Shown piece after piece: positions 1 through 12,068 of a stretch of DNA of 64,000 bases. Both the position numbers and the translations under genes were made by a program. Positions within the stretch are counted from its first letter, which is position 1. Each line of letters opens with the position of its first letter. This DNA is from Pseudomonadota bacterium. Lineage in GTDB: Bacteria > UBA10199 > 2-02-FULL-44-16 > JAAZCA01. The stretch spans positions 7,281 to 71,280 of the forward strand of contig JAZDOG010000020.1 in the NCBI GenBank assembly GCA_043798915.1, read 5' to 3'. Under the pieces are notes generated by a model. It saw only the letters and a program-made list of their open reading frames with translations. It was not told where the DNA came from and made no database searches.

Positions 1-525
1 TCGCGGCGAAAGGGTGTCGTCGAGCCGGTGGAGCGCGCCCAGAGAAGAGGCGAAGGCGCGCACGTCATCTATTTCAATTTCATTTTCCTTCAAGAGGCAC
101 GTTTTGAATCCGAGCTTCACGCCTTTGCGGTGAAGGTTCTTCACGGCACTGAACACCTTCTCCCTCGCTCCCCTGACGCCGGCGATTTTTTCGAACGCCG
201 TCCGGCTCATTGCCGGCAGCGTGATGTCGATCTTGTTCGGATTCAGGCGGGCGAACTCCCGGGCCGCTCGCGCATCTATCAGCGACCCGTTGGTGTAGAG
301 GATGAGCTGAAAACCCCTCCGTTTCGCGTGCCACATGATATCGAAGATGTCCTCCCTGAGGAGCGGCTCTCCGCCGGTGAACCCCAGATAGAGACAGCCG
401 GCATCGCGGAGCTGGTCCAGAAGGGAGAACACCTCTCCTGTCGAAAGCTCGGGCCGGCGCTTGAACCCTTCCGGCACGTAACAGTGCCCGCAGCGGAAGT
501 TGCAGCGATAGGTGAGTTCGAACAT
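1..525 (-). CDS. Radical SAM enzyme, partial (C-terminus beyond window start). N-terminus reads MFELTYRCNFRCGHCYVPEG... with a CxxxCxxC cluster.
   Basis: Manual reverse-complement translation of nt ~525->1 gives an uninterrupted frame with a canonical rSAM 4Fe-4S motif CNFRCGHC near the N-terminus and a GGE-like 'GFTGGEPLL' SAM-binding motif. Absent from the ORF track because it runs off the edge. G-rich SD (GAGGAGGGG) lies upstream. Start coordinate +/-3 nt. Confidence 0.65.
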   Translation of the reverse strand, partial: MFELTYRCNFRCGHCYVPEGFKRRPELSTGEVFSLLDQLRDAGCLYLGFTGGEPLLREDIFDIMWHAKRRGFQLILYTNGSLIDARAAREFARLNPNKIDITLPAMSRTAFEKIAGVRGAREKVFSAVKNLHRKGVKLGFKTCLLKENEIEIDDVRAFASSLGALHRLDDTLSPR

Positions 526-580
526 CACCCGGAGCGGGATGCCCCTCCTCGCCGCGCCCTCGCGGAGGCGGGCGTGGAAG

Positions 581-1678
581 TTATGATACGATCGATGGAT
601 CATTCATGCGCCGGAACGCCTTCTCCGCCATCCCGCAATAATAGGCTGCAGGGGCCTCCTCGTCGCCGGTCTCCAGAAAAGATGTGGCCGGGCAGATGCC
701 GCAGAGGGGCCTGAGCCGGCAGCTGCGGCATCTGGATTTCGTTTTGAATTTTTCCTTCAGGAGTTTCGGAAACTCCTCGTAGAAACCCTGCCGAAAGGGC
801 ACCTGCTTCAGATCGACGCCGAACCTCCTGGTCAGGGGGCACATCTTCAAAAAGCCAAAAGGGTCTATCGTGAACCCCGTCTTCCATTTCTCGCAATGAT
901 AAAGATGCTCCCTGTCCTTGTCCTTCGCCGGCCTGCGTGCCCTCTTCCCGGAGGGTGCCCCCTCACAATATTTTTTCCACATATCCTTATCCTGCCTCCT
1001 GACATCCTCGATCTCTTCGAACGTGAGTCTCAATTTCGTCGGCGCGAGGTCGCCGTTGAGCCTCGGCAAGATCATGGGGTCGTACTGGAAGCGATGTTTT
1101 TTCCGGTCCGGCGCGCCGGGGAGCCCATCGGCGAACGCCTTGATCCTTCCGATCTGATGCTGGTTCTGTTTCATGCAGTTCGTCTTGATCATGAAGGGAA
1201 TCTTTTCGTCGAAGAGCCTCCCGATGTTTCTCATCGTGCGCGCAAACGAGCCCTTCACCTGCGTGATCTCCTCGTAGACGTCCGCGGTGATGCCGTTGAG
1301 CGTTATCTCGACGGACTCCGGGGGGGAGGCGGCGAGATGGGAGATGATTCTTTCAGTCAGGGCATGCGCGCCGGTGTAGATGGTGACGATGAATCCCTTC
1401 CTCCTGGCGTAGTCGTAGAGCTCCAGGAAATCGGGCCTCACGAGGGGGTCGCCGCCGGTGAAGACGAGCCAGAGGCAGCCCTCCTCGCGGAGCCCATCGA
1501 GGATCTCTTTCCAGCCTTTGGCGGGGAGCTCCCGTTTTCTGTCCTCGCTGCCCTTGCAGAAGCAATGTATGCAGTTGAGGTCGCAGCTGTAGGTCAAACT
1601 GATATATCCCTTGAGCGGGGCGCGCTTCTTCTTGCGGTGTACCCAATCGCAAAAATAGACATGGCTGCGGTTCTTCAT
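581..1678 (-). CDS. Radical SAM/SPASM-domain peptide-modifying enzyme (maturase-like)
   Basis: Track ORF 581..1699 begins at TTG; the likelier ATG is at 1678 (MKNRSHVYFCDW..., GGAG 7 nt upstream). CxxxCxxC = CDLNCIHC. C-terminal Cys-rich SPASM-like region CRSCRLRPLCGICPA. 'VFTGGDPL' SAM motif. Confidence 0.8.
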   Translation of the reverse strand: MKNRSHVYFCDWVHRKKKRAPLKGYISLTYSCDLNCIHCFCKGSEDRKRELPAKGWKEILDGLREEGCLWLVFTGGDPLVRPDFLELYDYARRKGFIVTIYTGAHALTERIISHLAASPPESVEITLNGITADVYEEITQVKGSFARTMRNIGRLFDEKIPFMIKTNCMKQNQHQIGRIKAFADGLPGAPDRKKHRFQYDPMILPRLNGDLAPTKLRLTFEEIEDVRRQDKDMWKKYCEGAPSGKRARRPAKDKDREHLYHCEKWKTGFTIDPFGFLKMCPLTRRFGVDLKQVPFRQGFYEEFPKLLKEKFKTKSRCRSCRLRPLCGICPATSFLETGDEEAPAAYYCGMAEKAFRRMNDPSIVS

Positions 1679-1726
1679 CAGAGACTCCGGGAAGAGCAAT
1701 ACGGAAGGTCAATGCCTTGGTAAGGC

Positions 1727-1930
1727 TCAGCTAGTTGCAGCATACCAGACGGGTTCTACACACATACCTATCGCCGTAAACTTCTCGTAGGGCGTCCAGC
1801 AAGAGGAGCTTTCGTTCCAGTATTGACCCCCGTAAACTGGGTCGCTCATACAGTTGCATTCCAGCACTGCCTGCTCGGGGTTGAGCTCCACGCGGGTGAC
1901 CACCGGCCTGAATTTCGGTTTCTTGGGCAT
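1727..1930 (-). CDS. Candidate RiPP precursor peptide (67 aa): MPKKPKFRPVVTRVELNPEQAVLECNCMSDPVYGGQYWNESSSCWTPYEKFTAIGMCVEPVWYAATS
   Basis: Small ORF directly upstream of, and co-directional with, the rSAM/SPASM gene (48-nt gap). Very strong SD (AAGGGGGGGAGAT-ATG). Basic, charged N-terminal leader-like half; C-terminal half rich in Cys (4), Trp (3) and Tyr (4). The overlapping alternative-frame ORF 1731..1955 lacks an RBS and context. Confidence 0.5.
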   Translation of the reverse strand: MPKKPKFRPVVTRVELNPEQAVLECNCMSDPVYGGQYWNESSSCWTPYEKFTAIGMCVEPVWYAATS

Positions 1931-1967
1931 ATCTCCCCCCCCTTTTGCAGAACAACTATAATAACTT

Positions 1968-2058
1968 CCCCTCCTTTGTAAGGAGGGGACAGGGGAGGTA
2001 GATCAGCATTGAAACAGCGGTCTACCCCACCCTGACCCTCCCCTTACAAAGGGGAGGG
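1968..2058 (-). promoter_or_regulatory. Pair of near-identical perfect hairpins (CCCCTCCTT-TGT-AAGGAGGGG at ~1968-1988; CCCTCCCCTT-ACA-AAGGGGAGGG at ~2036-2058) in the 136-nt leader between the PqqD-like gene and the precursor peptide
   Basis: Seen directly in the sequence: 9-10-bp GC-rich stems with 3-nt loops. Their C-rich arms are complementary to the G-rich SD (GGGGGGGAG) of the peptide gene. Could act as an intra-operon attenuator/terminator or as SD-sequestering elements. Coordinates +/-2. Confidence 0.45.
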
Positions 2059-2066
2059 AAACGTCA

Positions 2067-2351
2067 CTAAACCAGGACCGCCTTGATCTCCTTTAAGTCC
2101 TTCAGGAGTTTTTTCATCTCCCTCTCCACCTCTTTGGGCGCGGAGCCAAACTCCTTCATGACCTTCTTTCCGATCCCCCCGGCCGTCGTCTTTCCGTCGA
2201 TCATCTCCCAGACCCGCGAGGCCGGTTTGTTGAGCGTGTAGATGCAATTGAGCTCTTCCGAGGTCTTGTAGATGGGCAGGAGGATTGTCTCATCGCCGAT
2301 CACGCGCGAGACCACGTCCGGATTCCTGCGCAGTATGGCGCCTTCACGCAT
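2067..2351 (-). CDS. PqqD-family protein (RiPP recognition element-like), 94 aa
   Basis: Track ORF 2067..2618, internal ATG at 2351 preceded by CAGGAGGGG. Sequence MREGAILRRNPDVVSRVIGDETILLPIYKTSEELNCIYTLNKPASRVWEMIDG... fits the PqqD/RRE pattern (P..v..r.idde.vLl.......y.LN..a..IWe..dG). The upstream 89 codons of the track ORF are G/P-rich low-complexity and probably untranslated. Confidence 0.7.
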   Translation of the reverse strand: MREGAILRRNPDVVSRVIGDETILLPIYKTSEELNCIYTLNKPASRVWEMIDGKTTAGGIGKKVMKEFGSAPKEVEREMKKLLKDLKEIKAVLV

Positions 2352-2440
2352 ATCCCCTCCTGTTGGAATGCCTTCCCCTGAATCCCGTGTATCTGACACG
2401 CGCGTATTTTTCAATAGATTTTTTGCCGGAGAGGTCCCCC

Positions 2441-2842
2441 TTAAGATTTTATCCATTGGTTCAGTCTGACCGCACCCCATATCCCAAGGCGGATCAGGGG
2501 GGCGAATACAACGATGGACCTGTTCACAAACCGATGCGCCCGGCTTGTCAGATTCACGACCGTGCCGTTCTTGAGGATTCCGACCACCTTTCCCAGACAG
2601 CGGTCCGGCGAGACGCATTCAGCGGTCCCGGATGTGTCGCCGCGCGCATAGAGGCGGTAGCCGCTGCCCTCTTTCGCCCTTCGAACGAGCCGGTGACAGA
2701 CGAACTTCTCGCCGGCGCGGTACAGGATGATGTCCCCCACTTTCAGATCACCGATGGGGGCCTCTCTTATTATCAGGCGCTCGCCCTGCTTGATGAACGG
2801 CCACATGCTGAATCCGGCCGTATCGAAGAATGAAACCTCCAT
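2441..2842 (-). CDS. S24/S26-family serine peptidase (signal-peptidase-I / SodX-like), 133 aa; candidate leader peptidase
   Basis: Start ATG at 2842 (MEVSFFDTAGFSMWPF...) with an AGGAGA RBS. A 'SMWP' motif matches the GDSMxP nucleophile box of S24/S26 peptidases. GDIILYR / GKVVGILKNG beta-strand motifs. Confidence 0.55.
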   Translation of the reverse strand: MEVSFFDTAGFSMWPFIKQGERLIIREAPIGDLKVGDIILYRAGEKFVCHRLVRRAKEGSGYRLYARGDTSGTAECVSPDRCLGKVVGILKNGTVVNLTSRAHRFVNRSIVVFAPLIRLGIWGAVRLNQWIKS

Positions 2843-2887
2843 GGAAAATCTCCTGTTTCGGTATTGAATGGTGGTGGGATATATGCC

Positions 2888-2915
2888 TGACATCATGGAC
2901 GTGTCAACTTCAGGA
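2888..2915 (+). repeat. Left copy of an imperfect direct repeat (TGACATCATGGACGTGTCAACTTCAGGA). Together with the upstream atggtggtgggatat it mimics the 5' end of the nucleotidyltransferase gene at 5406.
   Basis: Compare 5456-5483 TGCCGTCATGGATCTGTCAACTTCAGGA (about 25/29 identical). Encoded peptides MVVGYMPDIMDVSTSG vs MVDGYAEIGFYIDNEIPAVMDLSTSG. Flanks the 2.5-kb AlbA_2/ParA insert. Confidence 0.5.
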
Positions 2916-3170
2916 CATAGTGTGTGGGCGCGCCGGTTTGAAAAACCAGGTATTAAATTGTACGCACTTATAGCACTTTTTCAATATAACTACAAATTAG
3001 TTGATATAACCTCAATATTTGCGCTGTTATCACAAGTGAATTTGTGCAATGGTCTTTGTTGTTCTGTAAGTCACCACGATCTGGTATCTGTGCCTATACG
3101 GGTTGAGTTGTCACTTCCATTGAAAGAGTGCTGAGCTGTTACGAAAGACGAAGAAAGGGGGGAAGGGGCT

Positions 3171-4391
3171 ATGGGTTTAAAGATGATCGCCTATACTGAA
3201 CCAGAGATGGAGAAAATGCTCTCTGATCTCGAGACCGATAACGCCGAGCGAAAAGAATCCTTTCGGGGTGATGCGCCGACCAAGGTGCGCGAAGCCGTCT
3301 GTGCGTTTGCCAATGATTTGCCAAACCACGGCAAGCCAGGCATCGTCTTCGTCGGCGCGCGAGACGACGGAAATCCATCAGGGCTTGCGGTGACCGATGA
3401 GCTTCTTCGCCAGCTCGCAGACATCAAGACTGATGGCAACATTGTTCCTCCGCCGACGCTGACTGTTTCGAAACACGTTCTTCAAGGCAAGGAAATGGCG
3501 GTCATAACCGTTTGGCCCTCTGATTCCCCACCCGTGAGCTACAAGGGCCATATTTGCATTCGTATCGGCCCACGCCGTTGCATTGCCTCAGCGCAGGACG
3601 AGCGGCTTTTAAACGAAAAGAGACGGCACGGGGATCGTCCATTTGACGTTCGGGCAGTTCCGTCGTCTGCTCTGACAGATCTGGATCGACGGCGATTTGA
3701 GGAAGAGTACTTGCCTGCCGCCTTTGCATCCGATGTCCTTGCCGCAAACGAGCGCAGTTACGAGCAACGCCTTGCTGCGACCAAAATGGTGGTTGCGGCT
3801 GATGAGCCGACACCCACCGTGCTCGGTCTCCTGGTGCTGAGTGTGCGAACGCGCGATTTCATTCCAGGGGCGTATGTTCAATTTTTGCGGATTGCCGGTC
3901 GGGAGCTCGCCGACCCCGTTTCGGATGAACAAGTGATTGACGGCTCTGTGGTGGATGTGCTCCGACGCATAGATGAAAAACTAAGCTCACATAATCGCAC
4001 CGCGGTAGACCTGACAGGGGGAAGTCTGGAACGGCGCTCTTCCCTTTATCCAATGCCCGCCCTCCAGCAGCTCGTGCGCAATGCAATCATGCACCGAAGC
4101 TACGAAGCGACAAATGCCCCCGTGCGTGTGACATGGTATGACGACCGCATTGAAATCATCAACCCGGGCGGTCCCTATGGAGCTGTTACTAAGGAGAACT
4201 TTGGCCAGCCCGGCGTCAGCGATTACCGCAATCCCAGCCTTGCAGAAGCGCTGCGTGTTCTTGGCTTCGTGCAAAGATTCGGCGTAGGCATTGCCACAGC
4301 GCGCAGGGAACTACAGGCAAACGGGAATCCGTTGCCCGAGTTCGAAGTTACTGCGTCACACGTCGGTGTCACTCTGAGGTCTGCAACATGA
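3171..4391 (+). CDS. ATP-binding protein with AlbA_2 (Schlafen-like 'divergent AAA') N-terminal domain and HATPase_c_4-like C-terminus. Often annotated as RecG-like putative transcriptional regulator.
   Basis: 406-aa ORF. N-terminal region fits the AAA-4/AlbA_2 pattern; C-terminal region 'LVRNAIMHRSY...VRVTWYDDRIEIINPG' resembles HATPase_c_4. GC-richer than its AT-rich flanks. Confidence 0.5.
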   Translation: MGLKMIAYTEPEMEKMLSDLETDNAERKESFRGDAPTKVREAVCAFANDLPNHGKPGIVFVGARDDGNPSGLAVTDELLRQLADIKTDGNIVPPPTLTVSKHVLQGKEMAVITVWPSDSPPVSYKGHICIRIGPRRCIASAQDERLLNEKRRHGDRPFDVRAVPSSALTDLDRRRFEEEYLPAAFASDVLAANERSYEQRLAATKMVVAADEPTPTVLGLLVLSVRTRDFIPGAYVQFLRIAGRELADPVSDEQVIDGSVVDVLRRIDEKLSSHNRTAVDLTGGSLERRSSLYPMPALQQLVRNAIMHRSYEATNAPVRVTWYDDRIEIINPGGPYGAVTKENFGQPGVSDYRNPSLAEALRVLGFVQRFGVGIATARRELQANGNPLPEFEVTASHVGVTLRSAT

Positions 4392-5374
4392 AAACCATCG
4401 CCTTTTTTAACAACAAGGGTGGTGTAGGAAAAACCTCGCTAGTCTACCACCTTGCCTGGATGTACGCTGATCTCGGCCTCAGTGTGATCGCGGCGGATCT
4501 TGACCCACAAGCCAATCTCACTACCATGTTCCTGGACGAGGACGCCCTCGAAGCGCTCTGGCCGGAGGGAATGCCAGGACGGACTATTCTCGCCCCGCTG
4601 CTGCCGCTTTTGGAGGGAAGAGGTGGAATAGAGGAACCACATGTCGAGGACATCGCTGGCATAGGGCTCGTAGCCGGAGATCTTGCGCTTTCCGGATTCG
4701 AAGACGAACTGAGCCAACGATGGCCATACTGCCTTGAAGGCGATGCCCGAGCCTTCCGAGTAATAGGTGCGTTCCATCAGGTAATTGCGCTAGCAGCACA
4801 ACGTCGCGCGGCCGACGTCGTTCTAATCGACGTTGGTCCAAATCTCGGCGCGATCAACCGCGCAGCCTTGATTGCTGCCGATCATGTAGCAATTCCCCTC
4901 GCTCCGGATCTTTTTTCTCTCAAGGGACTTCAAAACCTTGGGCCCCGCTTGCGGGAGTGGCGTAAGGGATGGACAGAGCGCCTTAAAAAGTCTCCTGTTG
5001 GATTGGAGTTGCCTCAAGGGCACATGGCTCCGCTGGGCTATGTCGTAATGCAGCATGCAGTTCGTCTCGATAGACCTGTGAAGGCTTATGATAAGTGGAT
5101 GGTGCGAATCCCAAACGTGTACCGTGAGGCGGTTCTTGCGGAGGTAAAGACCCAGACAGATGTCGCTATCAACCGAGATCCTTACTGTTTGTCCACATTG
5201 AAACACTATAGAAGCCTTATGCCTCTCGCCCAAGAAGCACACAAACCCATGTTTTCGCTAAAAGCCGCCGACGGAGCGATCGGCGCTCATGCAAAATCTG
5301 TCCAAGACTGCTATCGTGATTTTCGTGAGCTTGCTATCGAAATTGCAAAACGGGCTGGAGTCACATTGCCGTAA
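4388..5374 (+). CDS. ParA/MinD-family P-loop ATPase
   Basis: Deviant Walker A 'FFNNKGGVGKTS' at the N-terminus; 'DLDPQANLT'; 4-nt overlap (ATGA) with the upstream gene suggests translational coupling. Confidence 0.8.
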   Translation: MKTIAFFNNKGGVGKTSLVYHLAWMYADLGLSVIAADLDPQANLTTMFLDEDALEALWPEGMPGRTILAPLLPLLEGRGGIEEPHVEDIAGIGLVAGDLALSGFEDELSQRWPYCLEGDARAFRVIGAFHQVIALAAQRRAADVVLIDVGPNLGAINRAALIAADHVAIPLAPDLFSLKGLQNLGPRLREWRKGWTERLKKSPVGLELPQGHMAPLGYVVMQHAVRLDRPVKAYDKWMVRIPNVYREAVLAEVKTQTDVAINRDPYCLSTLKHYRSLMPLAQEAHKPMFSLKAADGAIGAHAKSVQDCYRDFRELAIEIAKRAGVTLP

Positions 5375-5405
5375 TGGGGGTTAGCTTACGAACGGGAACG
5401 GTTGT

Positions 5406-6500
5406 TTGGTGGATGGCTATGCAGAAATAGGTTTTTACATTGATAATGAGATACCTGCCGTCATGGATCTGTCAACTTCAGGATGCGATTGGAACTCTGT
5501 CGTTGAACATGCCATCGAAAACGGCACGGCGACGCTCCTGTTTTCCCAATTGGCCTCGAAAGGGTTTCATGGCATGCCGCCGGCGGTCGTAGACCGCTTG
5601 AGGAAAATTTACTTATCCACGCTCATCAGCAACCGGAGGATGATGGCCGATGCGGCCCATGCCGTGCAGCTGCTCGAAAACGGCGGCGTCAAGACTGTGC
5701 TCATAAAGGGGATGGCGATGCTGGCGGACGTCTATGAGGACGCCGCGCTGCGCCGGACCTCGGACGCCGATATCCTCATCCATTTTGAAGACCTGGATAG
5801 AGCGAAGAAGATTCTCATGTCCGACGGCTTTGCCTGCGATCCCTTGGCCGACAAGTCGTCCTTTGCGAACGAGCTGGGTTTTGGAAGAAAAAACACAGTC
5901 TTCGTTGAGGTCAGATGGGACATGTGTCATCACGACCGCTTCCGGTTCTGCAACCGCTTCAGCATGGGGGGCATCTTCACGGGCGCCGCCGCCGCCGATC
6001 TCAATGGCGCCGCCGTAAAGATTCCCTCCCCGGAATATCAATTGCTCATCGCCGCCTTTCACCAATCGTTTGTCCACCATTTTGAAAAAAAGATGTGGCT
6101 GTATGATATCGTGGCGATCGCTGACCGCTACGGCAAGGACTTGAGCTGGGAGAGAGTCGTGCAGCTCTCAGAAACCTGCGGAATGCGGCGCGCCCTCGCG
6201 TACACGTTCCTTCGCGCGCGCCGGGAGTTCAATTTCAGCATGAAGCTTCCGCTGGAGATATCGCGCCTCCGGGTCCGCCTGCTGGATGCCTGCTCGCGCC
6301 GCCGTTACGGTTTTCTTGTGGAACTTCTCCTGCTGGACTGCCTGAAAGATCTCCTTCTCTATGCCGCGGGCGTCCTCTGGCCTTCCGACGGCTGGCTCAA
6401 ACACCACTACCGGACTTCGTCGACCAGACCCTGGCGCTTTCTGCATCCCTTTCTGGTCGCAGCGGGCGCCATCAAAAAAATCCTCGGGATATGGAGTTGA
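5406..6500 (+). CDS. Nucleotidyltransferase-family protein (NTP_transf_5-like, 'uncharacterised nucleotidyltransferase')
   Basis: 364-aa ORF. The track start is TTG; an in-frame ATG (MDLSTSG...) lies at 5463. Central 'TSDADILI...D' region is consistent with the nucleotidyltransferase fold of PF14907-like proteins. Confidence 0.5.
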   Translation: MVDGYAEIGFYIDNEIPAVMDLSTSGCDWNSVVEHAIENGTATLLFSQLASKGFHGMPPAVVDRLRKIYLSTLISNRRMMADAAHAVQLLENGGVKTVLIKGMAMLADVYEDAALRRTSDADILIHFEDLDRAKKILMSDGFACDPLADKSSFANELGFGRKNTVFVEVRWDMCHHDRFRFCNRFSMGGIFTGAAAADLNGAAVKIPSPEYQLLIAAFHQSFVHHFEKKMWLYDIVAIADRYGKDLSWERVVQLSETCGMRRALAYTFLRARREFNFSMKLPLEISRLRVRLLDACSRRRYGFLVELLLLDCLKDLLLYAAGVLWPSDGWLKHHYRTSSTRPWRFLHPFLVAAGAIKKILGIWS

Positions 6501-6503
6501 TGC

Positions 6504-7124
6504 ATGCTATATCAAAGAATATTGAGAAACCTTGCGCAGCTGGCGCAGGGCAAAATCAAGGCGCGAAAAATCCCTTCGAAGATAACCAATTTTATTCTCA
6601 GCTATAGTGAATCGCTCAGGCAGATCAAGAGAAGCAGATTCGCTATCGACGGCGTGATATTCAGGCCCGTTGAACCAAATGACGGATCGCGCTACGCCGA
6701 GTTTTTGCGCAATTATTATTTTCAGGAAGACATGCCTTACACAGGCGAGGCGGTAGCGGTCCCACATTGCAATGCGGAATACTTTTATCACGTCGCCGTG
6801 TATCAAAACAAGATCGTAGGAGGGGTGGGGATGGGCAGAATCCCGTCTGACACCGTTGACCTTTGGCGTATGGGAGGGTTGTCTGTTTTGCGTGATTTGC
6901 GCGGATACGGGATTGGCGAAAGGTTGCTGAAAACAGCAATTTCTGCCGTCGGGGAGGGGGACGCCATCATATTTCTCAATGTGGATAAAAATAATATGCC
7001 GGCGGTGAAATTATATAAGAAAGCCGGGTTTCATATGGCCGGCGGGCGGGAAAAAACCGTGATAAAAGATATCGGATACGCGCCGGGGAAAATAAGCATG
7101 GTGTTGGGGCGCATCCTCAATTGA
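6504..7124 (+). CDS. GNAT-family N-acetyltransferase
   Basis: Motif A-like 'RGYGIGERLLKTAI' and C-terminal 'LYKKAGF' typical of Acetyltransf_1. Confidence 0.7.
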   Translation: MLYQRILRNLAQLAQGKIKARKIPSKITNFILSYSESLRQIKRSRFAIDGVIFRPVEPNDGSRYAEFLRNYYFQEDMPYTGEAVAVPHCNAEYFYHVAVYQNKIVGGVGMGRIPSDTVDLWRMGGLSVLRDLRGYGIGERLLKTAISAVGEGDAIIFLNVDKNNMPAVKLYKKAGFHMAGGREKTVIKDIGYAPGKISMVLGRILN

Positions 7125-7178
7125 TATGCTGCCATTGACGAGGATGGCGTAGTGTTTTTTTATGAGTTTCATGGGAAT

Positions 7179-8804
7179 TCAGATTTTCCCGTTCATCTCA
7201 TATACATCAAAATGCCCGATCTCCTTCACCTTTAAGAAATTGTCGAAGATGTAGGATTTGAGCAGCGGAAAATCGTCAAGGCCGTCGTAATTATCAGGAT
7301 CAATTCTATGGAGGACCACTATCTCGACTTCATTTTTTTTGAGGTCATCCACGATCCAATTGTCCAGCCTGGCATCGTAGACCTCCGGATACGTCAACCT
7401 CTTTGCGAATTCGACCAGCGGCTGGGGAGAAGGCTTGCCCAGCGCGCCATAGAGCATGGCAAATAAATATGGAAAGGTAAAAAAATTCCTGTCCTTTTTC
7501 CGAAGATAGCTGGCCAGATTGTCAATATTCTCCGCTTTGTACGGATTGTCTTCGGTCGATGACTCAGCCCATTTCATGGGCTGCAGGTTGGGTTCCTTCA
7601 GCGCATTGAGGGACATGATGGGGGTAATCCACCCGCTTTTGAAAGCGTATCTGACGCCCCTGACCGCACAGACTATGAGCAGCATGGACACCAGCACGAT
7701 TAAAATCTTTCTTGGAGGAATCTTCAATTCACTGCGAAGCACTCCGGCGCTTTCGGGTATGGACAAATCAAAAAAATGGAACAGGAGGCCCGTCTCAAGT
7801 GAAGCGACGATGCCCACGAAGGAATACGATGTGGGGTAGACGGAGGTGTAAAAGAAGAAAAGCTGAAAGAGGAAGGCGCCTATGCACAGGACGGAAGATA
7901 TGAATGGGAGTCTCCATGAGGATCTCACCTTTTTAAAATTGCAGAAATACAATGCAACCACGACGGCCGGAACTGCGATGGTCAGCAATGCATATGGCTT
8001 GTGCATCTTCAGGGATTCGTTGAAAAGGGTTCCAAATCTTCCCGCGCCCACGCCGAATGGAAGGAGGATGTAATAACGCAGAAAATTATTGAGATCCGAT
8101 TTATATACAAGCCAGGACAAAAAAAGCGAAGCCGCCGCAGAAATGCCAAGGAGGAAAACGGCGATGCGTCCCCATGCGGGCCTCGCTTCGGAAATCGATG
8201 CTGCGATGATCAGCATAAGAAATAAAGGGATGGCAAAAAAACCCGTGTTCTGCTTCCCCAATAGTGTTGCGAATGCAAAGATTCCGCCTGTGAAGAGAAG
8301 CGCCATGTTGATGATGGACCGCCGTGATTTGCCGCAGAGCGCGGGGAGGATGAGCGCTATCGCTATGAATGAGAACGCCAGCGATATCTGCTCCGGCACC
8401 GGTATGCCGAAGGGCGCATTGAACCAGATTGCGGTGAGGAAACCCGCGATGTACGACAGATATTTCTGTGGAAAGAGGATTCTGACCGTCATCATGCTGC
8501 AGAGCGTCGCGACGACACTCATAGATGCCGCACAGACAAGGAACGCCACATAGTTGACGCCCAGGAGCTTGAAAAAAAGCGCCACAAGCCAGAACAACGC
8601 CAGGCTATGCTGGGAGACGAAGTCCTTGAACAGGATCTGGCCTGAGAATACCCTGTAACCGCCATCGAACGTCAATGCCGGGCTCAGCGGCATGGCAACC
8701 TGGCCTCCTATATAGCTCACGATGAACGCCGCTGATAGTATGAGCAGGATCACCGCAAGATCAAGCAGCTTGGAGCTCAGACGCGACGGATTGCTATTTG
8801 CCAT
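7179..8804 (-). CDS. Polytopic membrane glycosyltransferase, GT-C superfamily (ArnT/PMT/GT39-like), with C-terminal soluble domain
   Basis: About 12 predicted hydrophobic helices then a ~150-aa hydrophilic C-terminus. Probable ATG at 8804 (MANSNPSRLSSKLLDLAVILLIL...); the track ORF extends to 8909. Confidence 0.45.
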   Translation of the reverse strand: MANSNPSRLSSKLLDLAVILLILSAAFIVSYIGGQVAMPLSPALTFDGGYRVFSGQILFKDFVSQHSLALFWLVALFFKLLGVNYVAFLVCAASMSVVATLCSMMTVRILFPQKYLSYIAGFLTAIWFNAPFGIPVPEQISLAFSFIAIALILPALCGKSRRSIINMALLFTGGIFAFATLLGKQNTGFFAIPLFLMLIIAASISEARPAWGRIAVFLLGISAAASLFLSWLVYKSDLNNFLRYYILLPFGVGAGRFGTLFNESLKMHKPYALLTIAVPAVVVALYFCNFKKVRSSWRLPFISSVLCIGAFLFQLFFFYTSVYPTSYSFVGIVASLETGLLFHFFDLSIPESAGVLRSELKIPPRKILIVLVSMLLIVCAVRGVRYAFKSGWITPIMSLNALKEPNLQPMKWAESSTEDNPYKAENIDNLASYLRKKDRNFFTFPYLFAMLYGALGKPSPQPLVEFAKRLTYPEVYDARLDNWIVDDLKKNEVEIVVLHRIDPDNYDGLDDFPLLKSYIFDNFLKVKEIGHFDVYEMNGKI

Positions 8805-8893
8805 GCCATGCCCTTTGATGCGGTATCTAAGCTCAATTGAACCGCCGTGCATGCAAACATATTCCGGCGGGCAGTGCAACGGGACTTTGATGG

Positions 8894-9069
8894 TTACTAA
8901 GGAGAGCACATTATACCTCGCATCTTGCGGCCGCCAATGGCCTGCGACTGCGTCAGATTTCGCAAAAAGTGCTCAACGTAGCTTTGGCTACGCCTCCGCG
9001 CTTTTTGCTCATCTTCCTTGTCTCGGCTCATTGTCGTTGCAATCTGCGAGGTATAATGTGCTCTCCTTA
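8894..9069. mobile_element. MITE-like element: 29-bp perfect terminal inverted repeats (TTACTAAGGAGAGCACATTATACCTCGCA ... TGCGAGGTATAATGTGCTCTCCTTAGTAA) around a ~118-bp core
   Basis: Seen directly in sequence; lies in the divergent promoter region between the gene ending at 8804 (-) and the gene starting at 9118 (+). Explains the spurious mirrored ORFs 8722..9084(+) and 9009..9311(-), which both read 'KESTLYLA'. No transposase. Coordinates +/-2. Confidence 0.5.
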
Positions 9070-9117
9070 GTAAAGGGCTTGTAATGAACGCTGAAACTGG
9101 TAAAACTGGGTTCTCCG

Positions 9118-9975
9118 ATGAATATCAAAAAAGAAATATTCGATAAGCTCATCTGCTTAGGCTGCCATTCGAACGGATTGACCCTTTGCGCCGATTTCTC
9201 AATCCGGTGCGCCAAATGTTTGCGCACATATCCGATCGTGAACGGAGTGTATTCCTTTGTCCCGGAGGAAGCGGTTTCCTTCAGCGAAGTGCCGAAAGAG
9301 ATACGCGGCAATTATATCAGGGTTAAGAGGGCAGCCTACTTCGACGAGTCATTCATCCAAAAATTATACACGCATTATCATCGCTATGCGGGAAAGATGA
9401 GGAGCTTGTATGGCGGCGATGGATCAACGTTGGATATCGGGTTTGGGGCGGGCGAGCATTATGAATTCATCCGCCCTGACGAAAAAGACGGACGATCATT
9501 TATCGGAGCAGATCGCGACAGGTTCAAATTGGAATACTTTTGCAGAAATCATCAGGATGTTCCGGTGTTTCAGGCGGATGCACTCGACCTGCCGTTTTCG
9601 GATGGCAGTTTTGATGTGGTGCAGCTCTTGGCAACCATAGAACATTTTGATATAAAAGGCGTCAACAGGGTTATCTCTGAAAGCCTGAGGGTTTTGAAGG
9701 CGAACGGGATCCTGATCGTATGTTATCCGGCGGAAGGCAGCCTGCTGCTGAAGTGCTGCCGAAAGATCATGGGGGTCATTTTAAAGTTCAAGTCGGATTA
9801 TGACATGGTGAAAGATCTGGCGCATACGCATGCGCATTTATCTTCCGCCGCTGAAACAAGAAAAGCTTTGAAGAGCAACGGGCAATTAAAAAACGTCGAT
9901 TCATCATTCTACTTTCTGTCAATTCCAAATTTGCATTTATCACTTTTTATCAATGAAGTTTATAGAAAGATATAG
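9118..9975 (+). CDS. Class I SAM-dependent methyltransferase with N-terminal Trm112-like Zn-ribbon (CLGC...CAKC)
   Basis: Motif I 'LDIGFGAGEH'; acidic 'DALDLPFSDGSFDVV' post-I/II motifs (Methyltransf_11-like). Confidence 0.7.
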   Translation: MNIKKEIFDKLICLGCHSNGLTLCADFSIRCAKCLRTYPIVNGVYSFVPEEAVSFSEVPKEIRGNYIRVKRAAYFDESFIQKLYTHYHRYAGKMRSLYGGDGSTLDIGFGAGEHYEFIRPDEKDGRSFIGADRDRFKLEYFCRNHQDVPVFQADALDLPFSDGSFDVVQLLATIEHFDIKGVNRVISESLRVLKANGILIVCYPAEGSLLLKCCRKIMGVILKFKSDYDMVKDLAHTHAHLSSAAETRKALKSNGQLKNVDSSFYFLSIPNLHLSLFINEVYRKI

Positions 9976-9994
9976 CCGCCTTTGCAGGTAAAAT

Positions 9995-11512
9995 ATGACA
10001 ATGAATCGCAATAAAATATTGCTTGTTTATCCAAAGGTGGGGATGAGCGGTTCCTTTGCGTGTCATCTTCCTTTGAGCCTTCTCTATGCGGCGGCGGATT
10101 CCATCAAGGCTGGATTCGAGGTGGATATTGTCGATGTGAGGCTTTGTCCGCAGAAATGGAAGGAAGCCATCTCTGCGAAGATATCTTCCGGCACGATTTT
10201 GGCCGGGCTGAGCGTCATGACGGGCACGCCGATAAAAAATGCCCTTGAGATCTCCAGGTGGATCAGGAGTTCTTATTCCCATGTGAAGGTTGTCTGGGGA
10301 GGGCCCCACGCCGCTTTCAACGGCGCCGAGATTTTAAGGGAAAGGAGCATAGATTATGTCGTCAGCGGCTATGGTTCGCTGCCCCTGTCCAGGATTGCCA
10401 GGTTCCTGAGGGGCGACAAAGATGCATTGCAACTTGAGGACATATCCGGCCTGTCATATCGCAAAAACGGCTCTATCATGTCGGTGCCGAGGGAAAATAA
10501 ATTTGAGCTGATCAATTATAAAGACATTCCATACCACCTTATAGAAAAAGACCTTGGCCGCTATGGCCAGCTGGACAACGGCGAGATCATTTTCCCAATG
10601 TATAGCGTGGTAGGCTGCCCGTATCACTGCGCATTTTGTTCTTCCCCGGCTCAGTATAGGGATTTTACAAACAAGTACGAACGCATTTCATCGCAGGAGG
10701 TGGTCGACCATATCGAATTTGTTAAAAACGGGTATGGCGCCGAATATATATATTTCATCGATGATGATTCGTTCGTCAATCTTGAACATGTGACAAAAAT
10801 AATCGACGAGGTCAACAGCAGGGCGCTCAAGGTGCGCCTGGGTTTCAGGGGGGCCAGGATCGATGAGATCAAAAAAATGGATGACGAATATCTGGAAAAG
10901 CTGGTCGATGTCGGAACTGACATCCTTCATGTCGGTGCTGAATCAGGCTCGCAAAGGATGCTCGATCTGATACGAAAGGATATCACCGTCGATGATATTA
11001 TTTTCGTAAATAAAAAGATGGCGCGCCATAGCAGGATCGTTACCACATATAACTGGATAGTCGGGCTGCCGGGGGAGACGGAGGGCGATTTGCGCAAGAC
11101 GAGGGAGCTGATCATGACACTGCTGGGCGACAACCCGACTGCGATAATTGTCATGCCCAATAAATACCGCCCCTTGCCAGGAACAGAGCTGTATGAACAC
11201 GCGTTGAGACACGGCTATAAAAAACCTGCCAGGCTGGAAGACTGGATCGACAGAGAGGCGGAGGGAAGCTGGCGGATGCCGTGGTATACAAAAGAGACGG
11301 CAAAGATGATAGATATGATGCAGGTGACTTCATTTTTTATAGACGACAAAATATTCAAGGTGCGGACAGGCAGGACATTGAAGTTTCTCCTGGCGCGCCT
11401 GGTCTCCTGGATATATGCCCCGATAGCCAGGTTGAGATTTAAGCATGGTTTCTCAGGGATGCTAGTTGAACACAAATTGTTCCAATGGTCGGTCTCCGCC
11501 TTCCGAAAATAA
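9995..11512 (+). CDS. B12-binding-domain radical SAM protein (class B rSAM; likely C- or O-methyltransferase on a sugar)
   Basis: N-terminal Rossmann-like B12-binding region (ILLVYPK..., 'VVWGGPHA'), then rSAM cluster CPYHCAFC. Confidence 0.8.
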   Translation: MTMNRNKILLVYPKVGMSGSFACHLPLSLLYAAADSIKAGFEVDIVDVRLCPQKWKEAISAKISSGTILAGLSVMTGTPIKNALEISRWIRSSYSHVKVVWGGPHAAFNGAEILRERSIDYVVSGYGSLPLSRIARFLRGDKDALQLEDISGLSYRKNGSIMSVPRENKFELINYKDIPYHLIEKDLGRYGQLDNGEIIFPMYSVVGCPYHCAFCSSPAQYRDFTNKYERISSQEVVDHIEFVKNGYGAEYIYFIDDDSFVNLEHVTKIIDEVNSRALKVRLGFRGARIDEIKKMDDEYLEKLVDVGTDILHVGAESGSQRMLDLIRKDITVDDIIFVNKKMARHSRIVTTYNWIVGLPGETEGDLRKTRELIMTLLGDNPTAIIVMPNKYRPLPGTELYEHALRHGYKKPARLEDWIDREAEGSWRMPWYTKETAKMIDMMQVTSFFIDDKIFKVRTGRTLKFLLARLVSWIYAPIARLRFKHGFSGMLVEHKLFQWSVSAFRK

Positions 11513-11760
11513 TTTAGACGTCCCGCAAGGGAACTTCTGCCGAAATCAAGTGATTTGCTCATCAACGCCTTCTCGGTGCATGGTATCTCGCCGGGGTTCT
11601 TTCAATGGTCTTGGGGGCCTCCGGCGTTTTTACCGGGATCGGCGCAATGTATCTCGCTGGGACTCTTTGAATGGTCTCATGAGCTTCAGGGGCCTCCGGC
11701 GTTTTTACTTCCTCGGCTGGGAGTTGAGGCTCTTCGTATTTTCCCTTGGTGCGCACGTCC
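11466..11760. repeat. Tandem array of ~60-70-nt repeats (core ...CAATGGTC...GGGGCCTCCGGCGTTTTTAC...), about 3-4 copies
   Basis: Seen directly: tccaatggtcggtctccgccttccg / ttcaatggtcttgggggcctccggcgtttttacc / ttgaatggtctcatgagcttcaggggcctccggcgtttttact. On the minus strand they encode the VKTPEAPxxxETIxRxPARY and YYxEDVRTKG peptide repeats. Confidence 0.6.
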
Positions 11761-12068
11761 TCCTGATAATACTGCCCTTTAGTCCTCACATCCTCGCCGT
11801 AATAGCTGCCATTGACGCGTTCGCTCTGGATCCCTGACGGCGCCTGTGGATAGGGCACCGTTGTCTCGATATCCCGCCGCGGCGGGGCATTGGATATTGA
11901 AGAATTGATGATCGGCGAAATCACCTGGCCGATGCCCGTGGTCTGGCCGGCCACTGGGTTGGTTCCGGTTATGGCGCCGCCCGTATCCTGCCTCTGTGCG
12001 AAAACAGTCGTACTTACGGACAGGTCAAATATAAACACTATAATTGCTATTGAGTGAGATACCTTCAT
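11562..12068 (-). CDS. Secreted repeat protein (signal peptide MKVSHSIAIIVFIFDLSVSTTVFAQ; internal peptide repeats), hypothetical
   Basis: Probable ATG at 12068. Gly/Thr-rich linker then repeated motifs YYGEDVRTKGQYYQEDVRTKGKY and VKTPEAPEAHETIQRVPARYIAPIPVKTPEAPKTIERTPARYHAP. Confidence 0.45.
   Translation of the reverse strand: MKVSHSIAIIVFIFDLSVSTTVFAQRQDTGGAITGTNPVAGQTTGIGQVISPIINSSISNAPPRRDIETTVPYPQAPSGIQSERVNGSYYGEDVRTKGQYYQEDVRTKGKYEEPQLPAEEVKTPEAPEAHETIQRVPARYIAPIPVKTPEAPKTIERTPARYHAPRRR

Follow-up and report, generated by a model that had tools for sequence, protein, structure and literature searches.

How did two genes for a Schlafen-like protein and a ParA-like ATPase come to lie between the two halves of a cluster that resembles those for ribosomally synthesized and post-translationally modified peptides (RiPPs)? 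The question is raised by a 64,000-nt stretch of contig JAZDOG010000020.1 (assembly GCA_043798915.1, positions 7,281 to 71,280 of the forward strand), which was analysed as a whole and is called the window here; the coordinates of this locus are window-based. In the window, an imperfect direct repeat brackets a segment of 2,535 bp, which consists of a spacer, a gene encoding a Schlafen/AlbA_2-GHKL protein and an overlapping gene encoding the ParA-like ATPase. We give a probability of roughly 0.58 to the reading that the segment is a horizontally acquired two-gene cassette without a recombinase of its own and that the repeat is a decayed duplication of its target. The segment would have entered the RiPP-like cluster between its peptidase and nucleotidyltransferase-GNAT operons, with duplication of the target (the nucleotidyltransferase 5' end), so that the host gene start remained intact and the other copy (copy 1) could decay. 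The uninterrupted allele expected from this reading would be ...ATGGA(C/T)(G/C)TGTCAACTTCAGGA joined to TGCGATTGGAAC, with the junction at 2915|5484.

The direct repeat

The two copies of the repeat, at 2883-2915 and 5451-5483, are 33 nt long and align without a gap, with 28 of the 33 positions identical. Copy 2 runs from base -12 to base +21 of the nucleotidyltransferase gene, and copy 1 bears the same ATG and six codons, which confirms the suggestion of the initial annotation that the repeat duplicates the 5' end of the gene starting at 5463. The repeat is closed on the right by an exact core of 14 nt, TGTCAACTTCAGGA, which was found only at 2902 and 5470 in the 64 kb. The local alignment that the initial annotation had proposed as a check, made with neighbourhoods of 120-140 nt, scored 42.5 and thus exceeded all 500 shuffles (16.7 +/- 2.8, maximum 30.5). 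An empirical control that preserves the texture of real genomes used pseudo-modules as long as the real one, set into the flanks of 126 related loci. The 320 nt before each were compared with the 150 nt after it, and the score of the window in this comparison, 41, was attained by 2 of the 915 controls. The homology does not extend beyond its right end (p = 0.82). On the left, the copies were originally drawn as 2868-2915 and 5406-5483, but the additional 15-nt block (2868-2882 versus 5406-5420, displaced by a 30-nt indel) is marginal and not significant (best alignment 14/19, z = 1.8, p = 0.08). No second, partial copy of the module or of the spacer was detected in the window.

The similarity of the two sites might also be a coincidence or reflect a regulatory or translation-initiation motif shared by the two divergent operons. 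The repeat is short and was picked from a 64-kb window, its score was reached by the two controls mentioned above and, when 1-kb flanks were used, by 3 of 124. Copy 1 is part of the leader region of the operon that begins with the peptidase gene, 52 nt (span 41-73 nt) from the divergent start at 2842, and copy 2 lies at the nucleotidyltransferase start. Nevertheless, we consider this explanation quite improbable. The copies are on the same strand at both sites and hence oppositely oriented relative to the two operons, they are not palindromic, their 14-nt core is unique to the two sites, and the start codon and frame of the adjacent gene are reproduced. Moreover, about 10% of the cassette loci bear such a flanking repeat, so that the prior for a true repeat is high.

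Flanking duplications at related loci

The flanks of every non-redundant related locus were compared with each other, first as 1-kb flanks and then as tight flanks. With 1-kb flanks, 8 of 75 genome loci scored above 120 (repeats of 81-872 nt, 83-99% identical), compared with a maximum of 67 among 124 controls, and 7 of 46 metagenome loci scored 75 or more, compared with a control maximum of 34. With tight flanks, the window's score of 41 was reached or exceeded by 12 of 126 loci versus the 2 of 915 controls (Fisher p = 4.5e-10), the repeats being 33-872 nt long. In each case, the repeat is a copy of one end of an adjacent host gene, the gene itself being intact. The duplicated part is the 5' end of a DUF1156 gene in the loci L035, L105/L106, L111 and L129, the 3' end of a helicase gene in L041 and L110, the 3' end of an M19 dipeptidase gene in L024 and the 3' end of an OppC-like permease gene in L082. 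In L038, the first 839 nt of a HEPN-DUF499 gene and a leader of 37 nt are duplicated with 99.2% identity. This 872-nt duplication (2998-3873 / 6345-7220) brackets the pair; a separate open reading frame (ORF) of 337 aa that encodes only the HEPN part lies upstream, and the full gene is intact. Of all events of this class, the L038 duplication appears to be the youngest.

A context of helicase, DUF1156 and DUF499 genes is that of the Hma system, alias the type-1 DUF499-centred BREX-related system. The repeats embedded in Hma systems show 23 synonymous and 3 non-synonymous codon differences between their copies, whereas those outside Hma systems, including that of the window, show 7 synonymous and 15 non-synonymous ones (p = 7e-5 for the contrast). 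The first pattern indicates recombination between diverged Hma loci at the most conserved gene ends and not a duplication of the target. The second is compatible with a duplication that arose in place and whose truncated copy then decayed.

Short ORFs encoding only the N-terminus of DUF1156 (KKLIEVALPLEAIN...SAREKSIRHGH...) were seen just 5' of the Schlafen gene in several Hma-embedded loci (L035 5846-6007, L111 1577-1699, L129 1351-1464, L105 1018-1074, also L112 and L132). Their differences from the full downstream DUF1156 gene are nearly all synonymous, and in L035 the stop codon of this ORF overlaps the Schlafen start (ATGA). Two further loci have flanking repeats that appear to be non-coding (L102 3031-3124 / 5842-5935 and L100 16-115 / 2811-2907), those of L102 containing two stem-loops, GTCGGCTGC...GCAGCCGAC and GTTGGCTGC...GCAGCCAAC. 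These repeats may represent a different kind of element from the gene-end duplications.

A single-gene form was found in Spirochaetia (L068, L078, L079 and L082, about 5937-7205) as a sharply bounded 1.27-kb Schlafen cassette, 88-95% identical among the loci. It consists of a 45-nt leader with a promoter-like motif TTGACC-17-TTCAAT, located 9 nt before the ATG, and of the ORF. The position of the cassette varies around one neighbouring gene, X. In L068 it is bracketed by a duplicated gene end at the junction between X and the next gene, Y, which is cassette-free in L082 and L079. The X|Y junction of L068 has about 106 nt that are missing from L082, and L082 is thus not the exact ancestral site.

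Relation of the pair to the peptide cluster

Homologous peptide clusters (L173, L175 and L177, from Omnitrophota and other contigs) contain a peptidase (50-57% identity), a PqqD-like protein (54-60%), a precursor leader and radical-SAM genes, and none of them carries a Schlafen or ParA gene. The nucleotidyltransferase has one real homologue among 5.8 billion proteins, P0122 (L010 653-2218, 521 aa, 34% identity), which is a fusion of an S24 peptidase and NTP_transf_5 flanked by DUF5678 genes and a 49-aa ORF. Since this sole homologue is fused to an S24 peptidase, the peptidase and the nucleotidyltransferase, which are separated by the segment in the window, belong together functionally. The indirect evidence is consistent with the insertion of a foreign mobile defence cassette, which we regard as likely.

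Base composition does not support the description of the two genes as noticeably GC-richer than their surroundings: the Schlafen and ParA-like genes have 56.1% and 53.8% GC, respectively, versus 57.5% for the genes of the left flank and 57.3% for the nucleotidyltransferase. Only the spacer between the copies is AT-rich, as had been stated (Table 1). The composition profile that had been proposed as a further check gave no foreign signature, since the tetranucleotide distance of the module is unremarkable (61st percentile of windows). The GC content at third codon positions (GC3) is 0.57 in the Schlafen gene and 0.52 in the ParA-like gene, 0.72-0.79 in the adjacent cluster genes and 0.57-0.64 in the other genes of the window. 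If anything is a compositional outlier, it is the peptide-cluster genes (581-2842, 5463-6500) and not the inserted pair.

That the pair is native to the cluster, as a regulator, an immunity function or a ParA-type segregation function, might be argued from its position directly 5' of, and on the same strand as, the nucleotidyltransferase-GNAT genes and from its bulk GC content, which is like that of its neighbours. We find this scarcely credible. The homologous clusters lack the pair, its GC3 differs from that of the cluster, its relatives are found in Hma systems and in many other, unrelated settings, a ParB or centromere partner is not evident, and the close relatives are chromosomal and scattered, the best plasmid match being only 35% identical.

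Possible mode of arrival

In agreement with the initial annotation, no integrase, transposase or recombinase domain was found in the segment or in the approximately 14-18 kb downstream (genes to about 21.6 kb), which encode methyltransferase, radical-SAM and glycosyltransferase proteins, and no tRNA gene was found at 1-12000. Nor did the comparison of loci reveal any conserved cassette termini; at the DNA level, the window resembles other loci over exactly 3183-5375, up to the coding ends and no further. There is no recombinase, no conserved end and no attachment (att) core, and the duplications vary in length, all of which speaks against transposition, site-specific integration or integron capture. 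An insertion sequence or transposon was rejected because there is no transposase, no inverted repeat linking the ends and no conserved terminus, and the duplications range from 33 to 872 nt. An integron cassette was rejected as well, as no attC-type hairpin is present (5372-5465 folds like its shuffles, z = 0.0 and 1.0 for the two strands).

The repeats resemble the target-site duplications of transposons and the attL and attR sites of integrated elements in that they are direct, bracket the segment and leave the host gene intact. They differ from them in being imperfect, long, variable (33-872 nt) and host-specific, and in the absence of a transposase, an integrase and terminal inverted repeats. 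The two copies might be the attL and attR sites of a small mobilisable island that an integrase acting in trans inserted into the 5' end of the nucleotidyltransferase gene, with the 14-bp core as the crossover site and the island supplying the gene start. As in att sites, the core is perfect at the right end and the similarity is imperfect leftward and sharply bounded on the right; in addition, copy 2 provides a working start codon. An island of this kind is, however, very doubtful, since neither the segment nor the 18 kb or so downstream of it encodes an integrase or recombinase, no tRNA gene is present and the cassette has no conserved termini. The repeats at other insertions are entirely different (40-872 nt) and copy local host genes, with no conserved att site in more than 120 loci.

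The joining of the segment would most likely have been independent of a recombinase, by illegitimate end-joining or by homology-facilitated recombination, and selection would have kept the events in which a gene end was duplicated instead of lost. In Campbell-type insertion-duplication and in homology-facilitated illegitimate recombination, both known from work on natural transformation, foreign DNA is inserted without a dedicated recombinase and a flanking host duplication of variable length is left. The Hma-embedded loci are like this, as their repeat copies differ at synonymous sites in the manner of diverged homologues. The window is unlike it in one respect, because a donor with a homologous nucleotidyltransferase gene is unlikely when this gene is nearly unique in the databases.

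The same repeat could have arisen as an amplification scar. The module would already have been in place, a tandem duplication, favoured for instance by selection for dosage, would have covered the spacer, the module and the 5' end of the nucleotidyltransferase gene, and its later collapse by an imprecise deletion would have left the 33 bp. On this view, the repeat would be the trace of a local cycle of duplication and deletion and would not mark the arrival of the module. The Spirochaetia cassette lies on different sides of gene X with remnants of neighbour ends beside it, the 872-nt duplication of L038 at 99.2% identity resembles a recent local duplication, and the mismatches of the repeats outside Hma systems are without a synonymous bias. 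On the other hand, two events with suitable junctions would be needed, no further fragment of the module or spacer is left in the window, and the presence of the module in a cluster whose relatives lack it would be left unexplained. We consider such a scar unlikely, and yet a serious alternative to the acquisition of the cassette with duplication of its target.

Several points weigh against that acquisition. Duplication followed by deletion would account for the Spirochaetia data and for L038 equally well. The repeat of the window is the weakest of its class (33 nt, score 41), and two controls lie at 41-45. The repeat-bearing loci belong in part to the same lineages (L105/L106 are 98.8% identical, L111/L129 93%), so that about ten events are independent. 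Since a synonymous bias is found inside Hma systems and none outside them, more than one process makes such repeats. No empty site and no close relative of the cluster was found in the collections searched, and metagenome contigs gave no match to a codon-degenerate pattern of the nucleotidyltransferase 5' end. With the repeat taken as the boundary of the insert, the original gap between the peptidase and nucleotidyltransferase genes would have been only about 52 nt, and the peptidase promoter would have to lie in the inserted spacer or in the nucleotidyltransferase gene. Base composition does not single out the module as alien to the whole genome. As regards function, PADLOC has no model for the pair, and its models for embedded candidates were unmatched.

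The proposal of the initial annotation that an insertion split the cluster is thus upheld insofar as the module is foreign to the cluster and absent from the homologous clusters; as no empty site was found, we still infer the insertion itself. The two outcomes that had been named as contradicting it did not occur: no relatives showing the same arrangement without an empty site were found, and the similarity of the repeat did not fall to chance level.

Distribution and genomic context of the pair

The Schlafen-type protein has more than 7,900 homologues, the best 120 of which are 71-85% identical and come from many phyla. It is 55-85% identical across more than 10 phyla in unrelated neighbourhoods. 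The 80 genome loci represent Acidobacteriota, Planctomycetota, Myxococcota, Gemmatimonadota, Chloroflexota, Spirochaetota, Pseudomonadota, Cyanobacteria and Clostridia. The ParA-like gene directly follows the Schlafen gene in about 60% of them, and the Schlafen gene is located immediately 5' in 55 of the 56 ParA-like loci with enough upstream sequence. The dependence is therefore one-way: the ATPase depends on the Schlafen gene and not vice versa. The sequences compared show the pair to be a widespread operon that moves horizontally.

In the loci L097-L103, the ParA-like protein is 70-74% identical to that of the window, and the Schlafen partner is 44-49% identical in L097-L099 and L101-L103 (70% in L100). 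The Schlafen and ParA-like genes have swapped partners between these clades.

The closest relatives of the pair (77-86%: L011, L091, L092, L095, L017 and L019) lie between an SNF2/NOV_C helicase gene and a DUF1156 methylase gene, with a DUF499 ATPase gene beyond. This position between the helicase (HmaA) and the DUF1156 methylase (HmaB), which is the usual one for the lineage of the pair, was found for six of the eight closest relatives, and DUF1156 is immediately 3' of the pair in 22 of 91 pair loci. In the window, tblastn with helicase, DUF1156 and HEPN-DUF499 queries gave zero matches across the 64 kb. As the window contains no Hma gene, this copy of the pair is an orphan, away from Hma genes.

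Proteins combining Schlafen, histidine kinase and winged helix-turn-helix (wHTH) domains are auxiliary effectors of BREX and BREX-related loci in at least 1,017 taxa (PMC12839542). Accessory genes embedded in Hma systems have been used for finding new defences, and how they become embedded without mobility genes was left unexplained (bioRxiv 10.1101/2024.01.29.577857). The protein of the window resembles these auxiliary or backup Schlafen RNase effectors in its combination of a Schlafen domain, a minimal histidine-kinase-like domain and a wHTH, and its closest relatives are likewise embedded between helicase and DUF1156 (PMC12839542). The window copy differs from them in its location in a biosynthetic cluster without any Hma or BREX gene. 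Neither of the two reports mentions a ParA-like partner (PMC12839542; bioRxiv 10.1101/2024.01.29.577857).

The view that the two genes form an uncharacterised module has thus to be divided. The supradomain family of the Schlafen component and its class of auxiliary effectors are already described. No description of the combination with a ParA-like partner turned up in the searchable literature, and both this obligate partner and the recurrent duplications of host gene ends appear to be undescribed there.

The Schlafen-GHKL protein

The product of 3171-4391 is predicted to be an effector composed of a Schlafen-like nuclease domain, a GHKL/HATPase_c_4 domain and a C-terminal wHTH-like region, i.e. 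a "Schlatpase". The domain calls of the initial annotation were correct for both proteins (Table 1). SLFN_AlbA_2 occupies the N-terminus (PF04326, residues 21-135), where Foldseek matched 2KYY, an AlbA_2-type N-terminal domain. The GHKL/HATPase_c_4 domain (PF13749) matched PDB 3LMM, which is DIP2311 of Corynebacterium diphtheriae, by both sequence and fold (E = 6e-14). Further fold matches were the catalytic domains of BCKD/PDK and of histidine kinases. The AlphaFold model behind these comparisons is mediocre (pLDDT, the predicted local distance difference test, of 63) and served for confirmation at the level of the fold only.

Within the family, the acidic residues E21 and E26 are present in 112 of 112 sequences and D65 in 99 of 112, and both the C and the N of a CAFAN motif (C44-A-F-A-N48) are invariant; the register of these residues relative to SLFN11 and to RzAgo, a characterised Schlafen-GHKL-Argonaute protein, comes from motif spacing and not from structural superposition. 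In the GHKL domain, N304 is invariant, and the position four residues before it is Gln in 100 of 112 sequences and Glu in 12. The window protein has Q300 there and so lacks the catalytic Glu of the ExxxN motif (E314/N318 in RzAgo). The E314A substitution in RzAgo abolished ATP hydrolysis and preserved ATP binding; tRNA cleavage by RzAgo becomes active on tetramerisation, which is driven by the binding of ATP (bioRxiv 10.64898/2026.05.29.728809). By analogy, the GHKL domain of the window protein probably binds ATP without hydrolysing it.

The window protein and Schlatpase/RzAgo (bioRxiv 10.64898/2026.05.29.728809) share two identical Pfam domains in a conserved order, the E-x4-E...D acidic residues, a SAFAN-like motif (CAFAN in the window family) and the GHKL fold. 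The window protein also has the short stand-alone form with a C-terminal HTH, which is the majority form of Schlatpase according to the preprint. Unlike RzAgo, the window protein has no Argonaute core, and the counterpart of E314 is Gln in most family members. A further difference is the obligate ParA-like partner of the window family, the word ParA being absent from the preprint. PADLOC gave domain-level matches to Argonaute-associated Schlafen proteins and a match to PDC-M28B in the P-loop only.

The ParA-like ATPase

The ParA-like protein has a deviant Walker A motif, KGGVGKT, with K10 conserved in 120 and K15 in 119 of 123 sequences, and the Walker A'/B aspartates D37, D39 and D148 are present in all 123. 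PDB 3PG5, an uncharacterised protein, aligns with residues 1-302 (E = 7.9e-30). This structure may be that of DIP2308, encoded near DIP2311, in which case the linkage would extend to Actinobacteria and structures of both proteins would already be available; no discussion of 3PG5 was found in the searchable literature.

The deviant Walker A with its signature lysine and the conserved A'/B aspartates are common to this ATPase and to the partition ATPases ParA, Soj and MinD. In contrast to them, it appears to have no ParB or centromere partner (neither neighbour contains a ParB-family domain), it is coupled to a nuclease-type protein, namely the Schlafen-GHKL-wHTH protein, and its loci are chromosomal and scattered and do not look like loci for replicon maintenance. 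The NCBIfam partition models scored far under their cut-offs. No close plasmid relatives (best 35% identity) and no close phage relatives were found. One 67% relative sits at the edge of a viral contig, and the viral homologues of 37-39% identity have no Schlafen gene and resemble ordinary partition ParAs. The ATPase is predicted to be a sensor or regulator of the Schlafen effector.

A 30%-identical homologue is encoded on the Spirosoma oryzicola plasmid NZ_CP089544.1 (L172 5001-6889), where its gene follows that of a DEAD/DEAH helicase and overlaps a SIR2-family gene by 4 nt. This SIR2 coupling suggests that the ParA-like ATPase family pairs with interchangeable effectors.

Layout of the locus

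The features of the locus are listed in Table 1. The overlap of the Schlafen and ParA-like genes, which had been noted initially, amounts to 4 nt (ATGA at 4388-4391), and this stop/start arrangement predicts that the two genes are translationally coupled.

Table 1 Position of the repeat, the bracketed segment and the cluster genes in the window
Feature	Position	Strand	Remarks
Radical-SAM gene	581-1699	-	Downstream in peptidase operon
Precursor gene	1727-1930	-	67 aa; peptidase operon
PqqD-like gene	about 2067-2351	-	Peptidase operon
S24/S26-type peptidase gene	2441-2842	-	First gene of minus-strand operon; start 2842 fixed by P0125 (133 aa)
Direct repeat, copy 1	2883-2915	+	12-nt leader, ATG at 2895 and six codons; truncated nucleotidyltransferase 5' end
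AT-rich spacer	2916-3170		255 nt, 41.6% GC; between copy 1 and Schlafen gene
SLFN_AlbA_2 + HATPase_c_4 gene	3171-4391	+	406 aa; PF04326 4.8e-13, PF13749 5.3e-19
ParA/MinD-class ATPase gene	4388-5374	+	328 aa; AAA_31 1e-25, CbiA 3.8e-12
Gap	5375-5450		76 nt; ParA-like stop to copy 2
Direct repeat, copy 2	5451-5483	+	Overlaps NTP_transf_5 start, ATG 5463
NTP_transf_5 nucleotidyltransferase gene	5463-6500	+	PF14907 3.6e-41; NCBI-annotated start 5463 (P0121, 345 aa)
GNAT gene	6504-7124	+	Acetyltransf_1 8.8e-15

The spacer (2916-3170) showed no homology to any other module-bearing locus, no stable structure and no Rfam family. It contains a 14-nt inverted repeat matching at 13 of 14 positions, AGCACTTTTTCAAT / ATTGAAAGAGTGCT (2972-2985 / 3119-3132), the arms of which are 133 nt apart, and a single minus-strand sigma-70-like match from 2984 to 2957 that is no better than chance. 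Promoter and terminator scans gave matches at chance level only. Neither structure nor homology to other loci was detected in the gap at 5375-5450. Between the PqqD-like and precursor genes (1959-2069), we observed a near-perfect hairpin of about 100 nt with C/T-rich and G/A-rich arms. Its weak Rfam matches are to microRNA precursors only and reflect the hairpin shape.

Function and significance

Family knowledge and genomic context suggest that the pair is probably an abortive-infection module, in which the ParA-like ATPase would sense or gate and the Schlafen domain would cleave tRNA or other RNA. A broader reading, which we put forward only tentatively and hold to be possible rather than probable, is that Schlafen-GHKL cassettes, alone or with the ParA-like gene, form a minimal class of mobile defence elements without a recombinase, and that the pair is a self-sufficient, undescribed two-component anti-phage system. 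Such cassettes might spread among Hma and BREX-related systems through recombination at the conserved helicase and DUF1156 ends, and into unrelated genes through insertion with duplication of a gene end; either way, imperfect direct repeats like those of the window and of about 10% of the loci would be left behind. In the two-component system, a SIMIBI-class ATPase would gate a Schlafen RNase whose GHKL domain has lost the catalytic glutamate.

Among the proteins of prokaryotes that are associated with defence but uncharacterised, those of the Schlafen-GHKL type belong to the most abundant. The obligate ParA-like partner, if true, would provide a testable two-gene system and would represent a new class of ATPases in defence signalling. 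For the peptide cluster, the insertion probably uncoupled its two halves, which is relevant to expressing the cluster. The duplicated ends of neighbouring genes are a concrete trace at the molecular level, which can be surveyed across thousands of loci and tested by experiment, and these scars hint at how cassettes without their own recombinase move.

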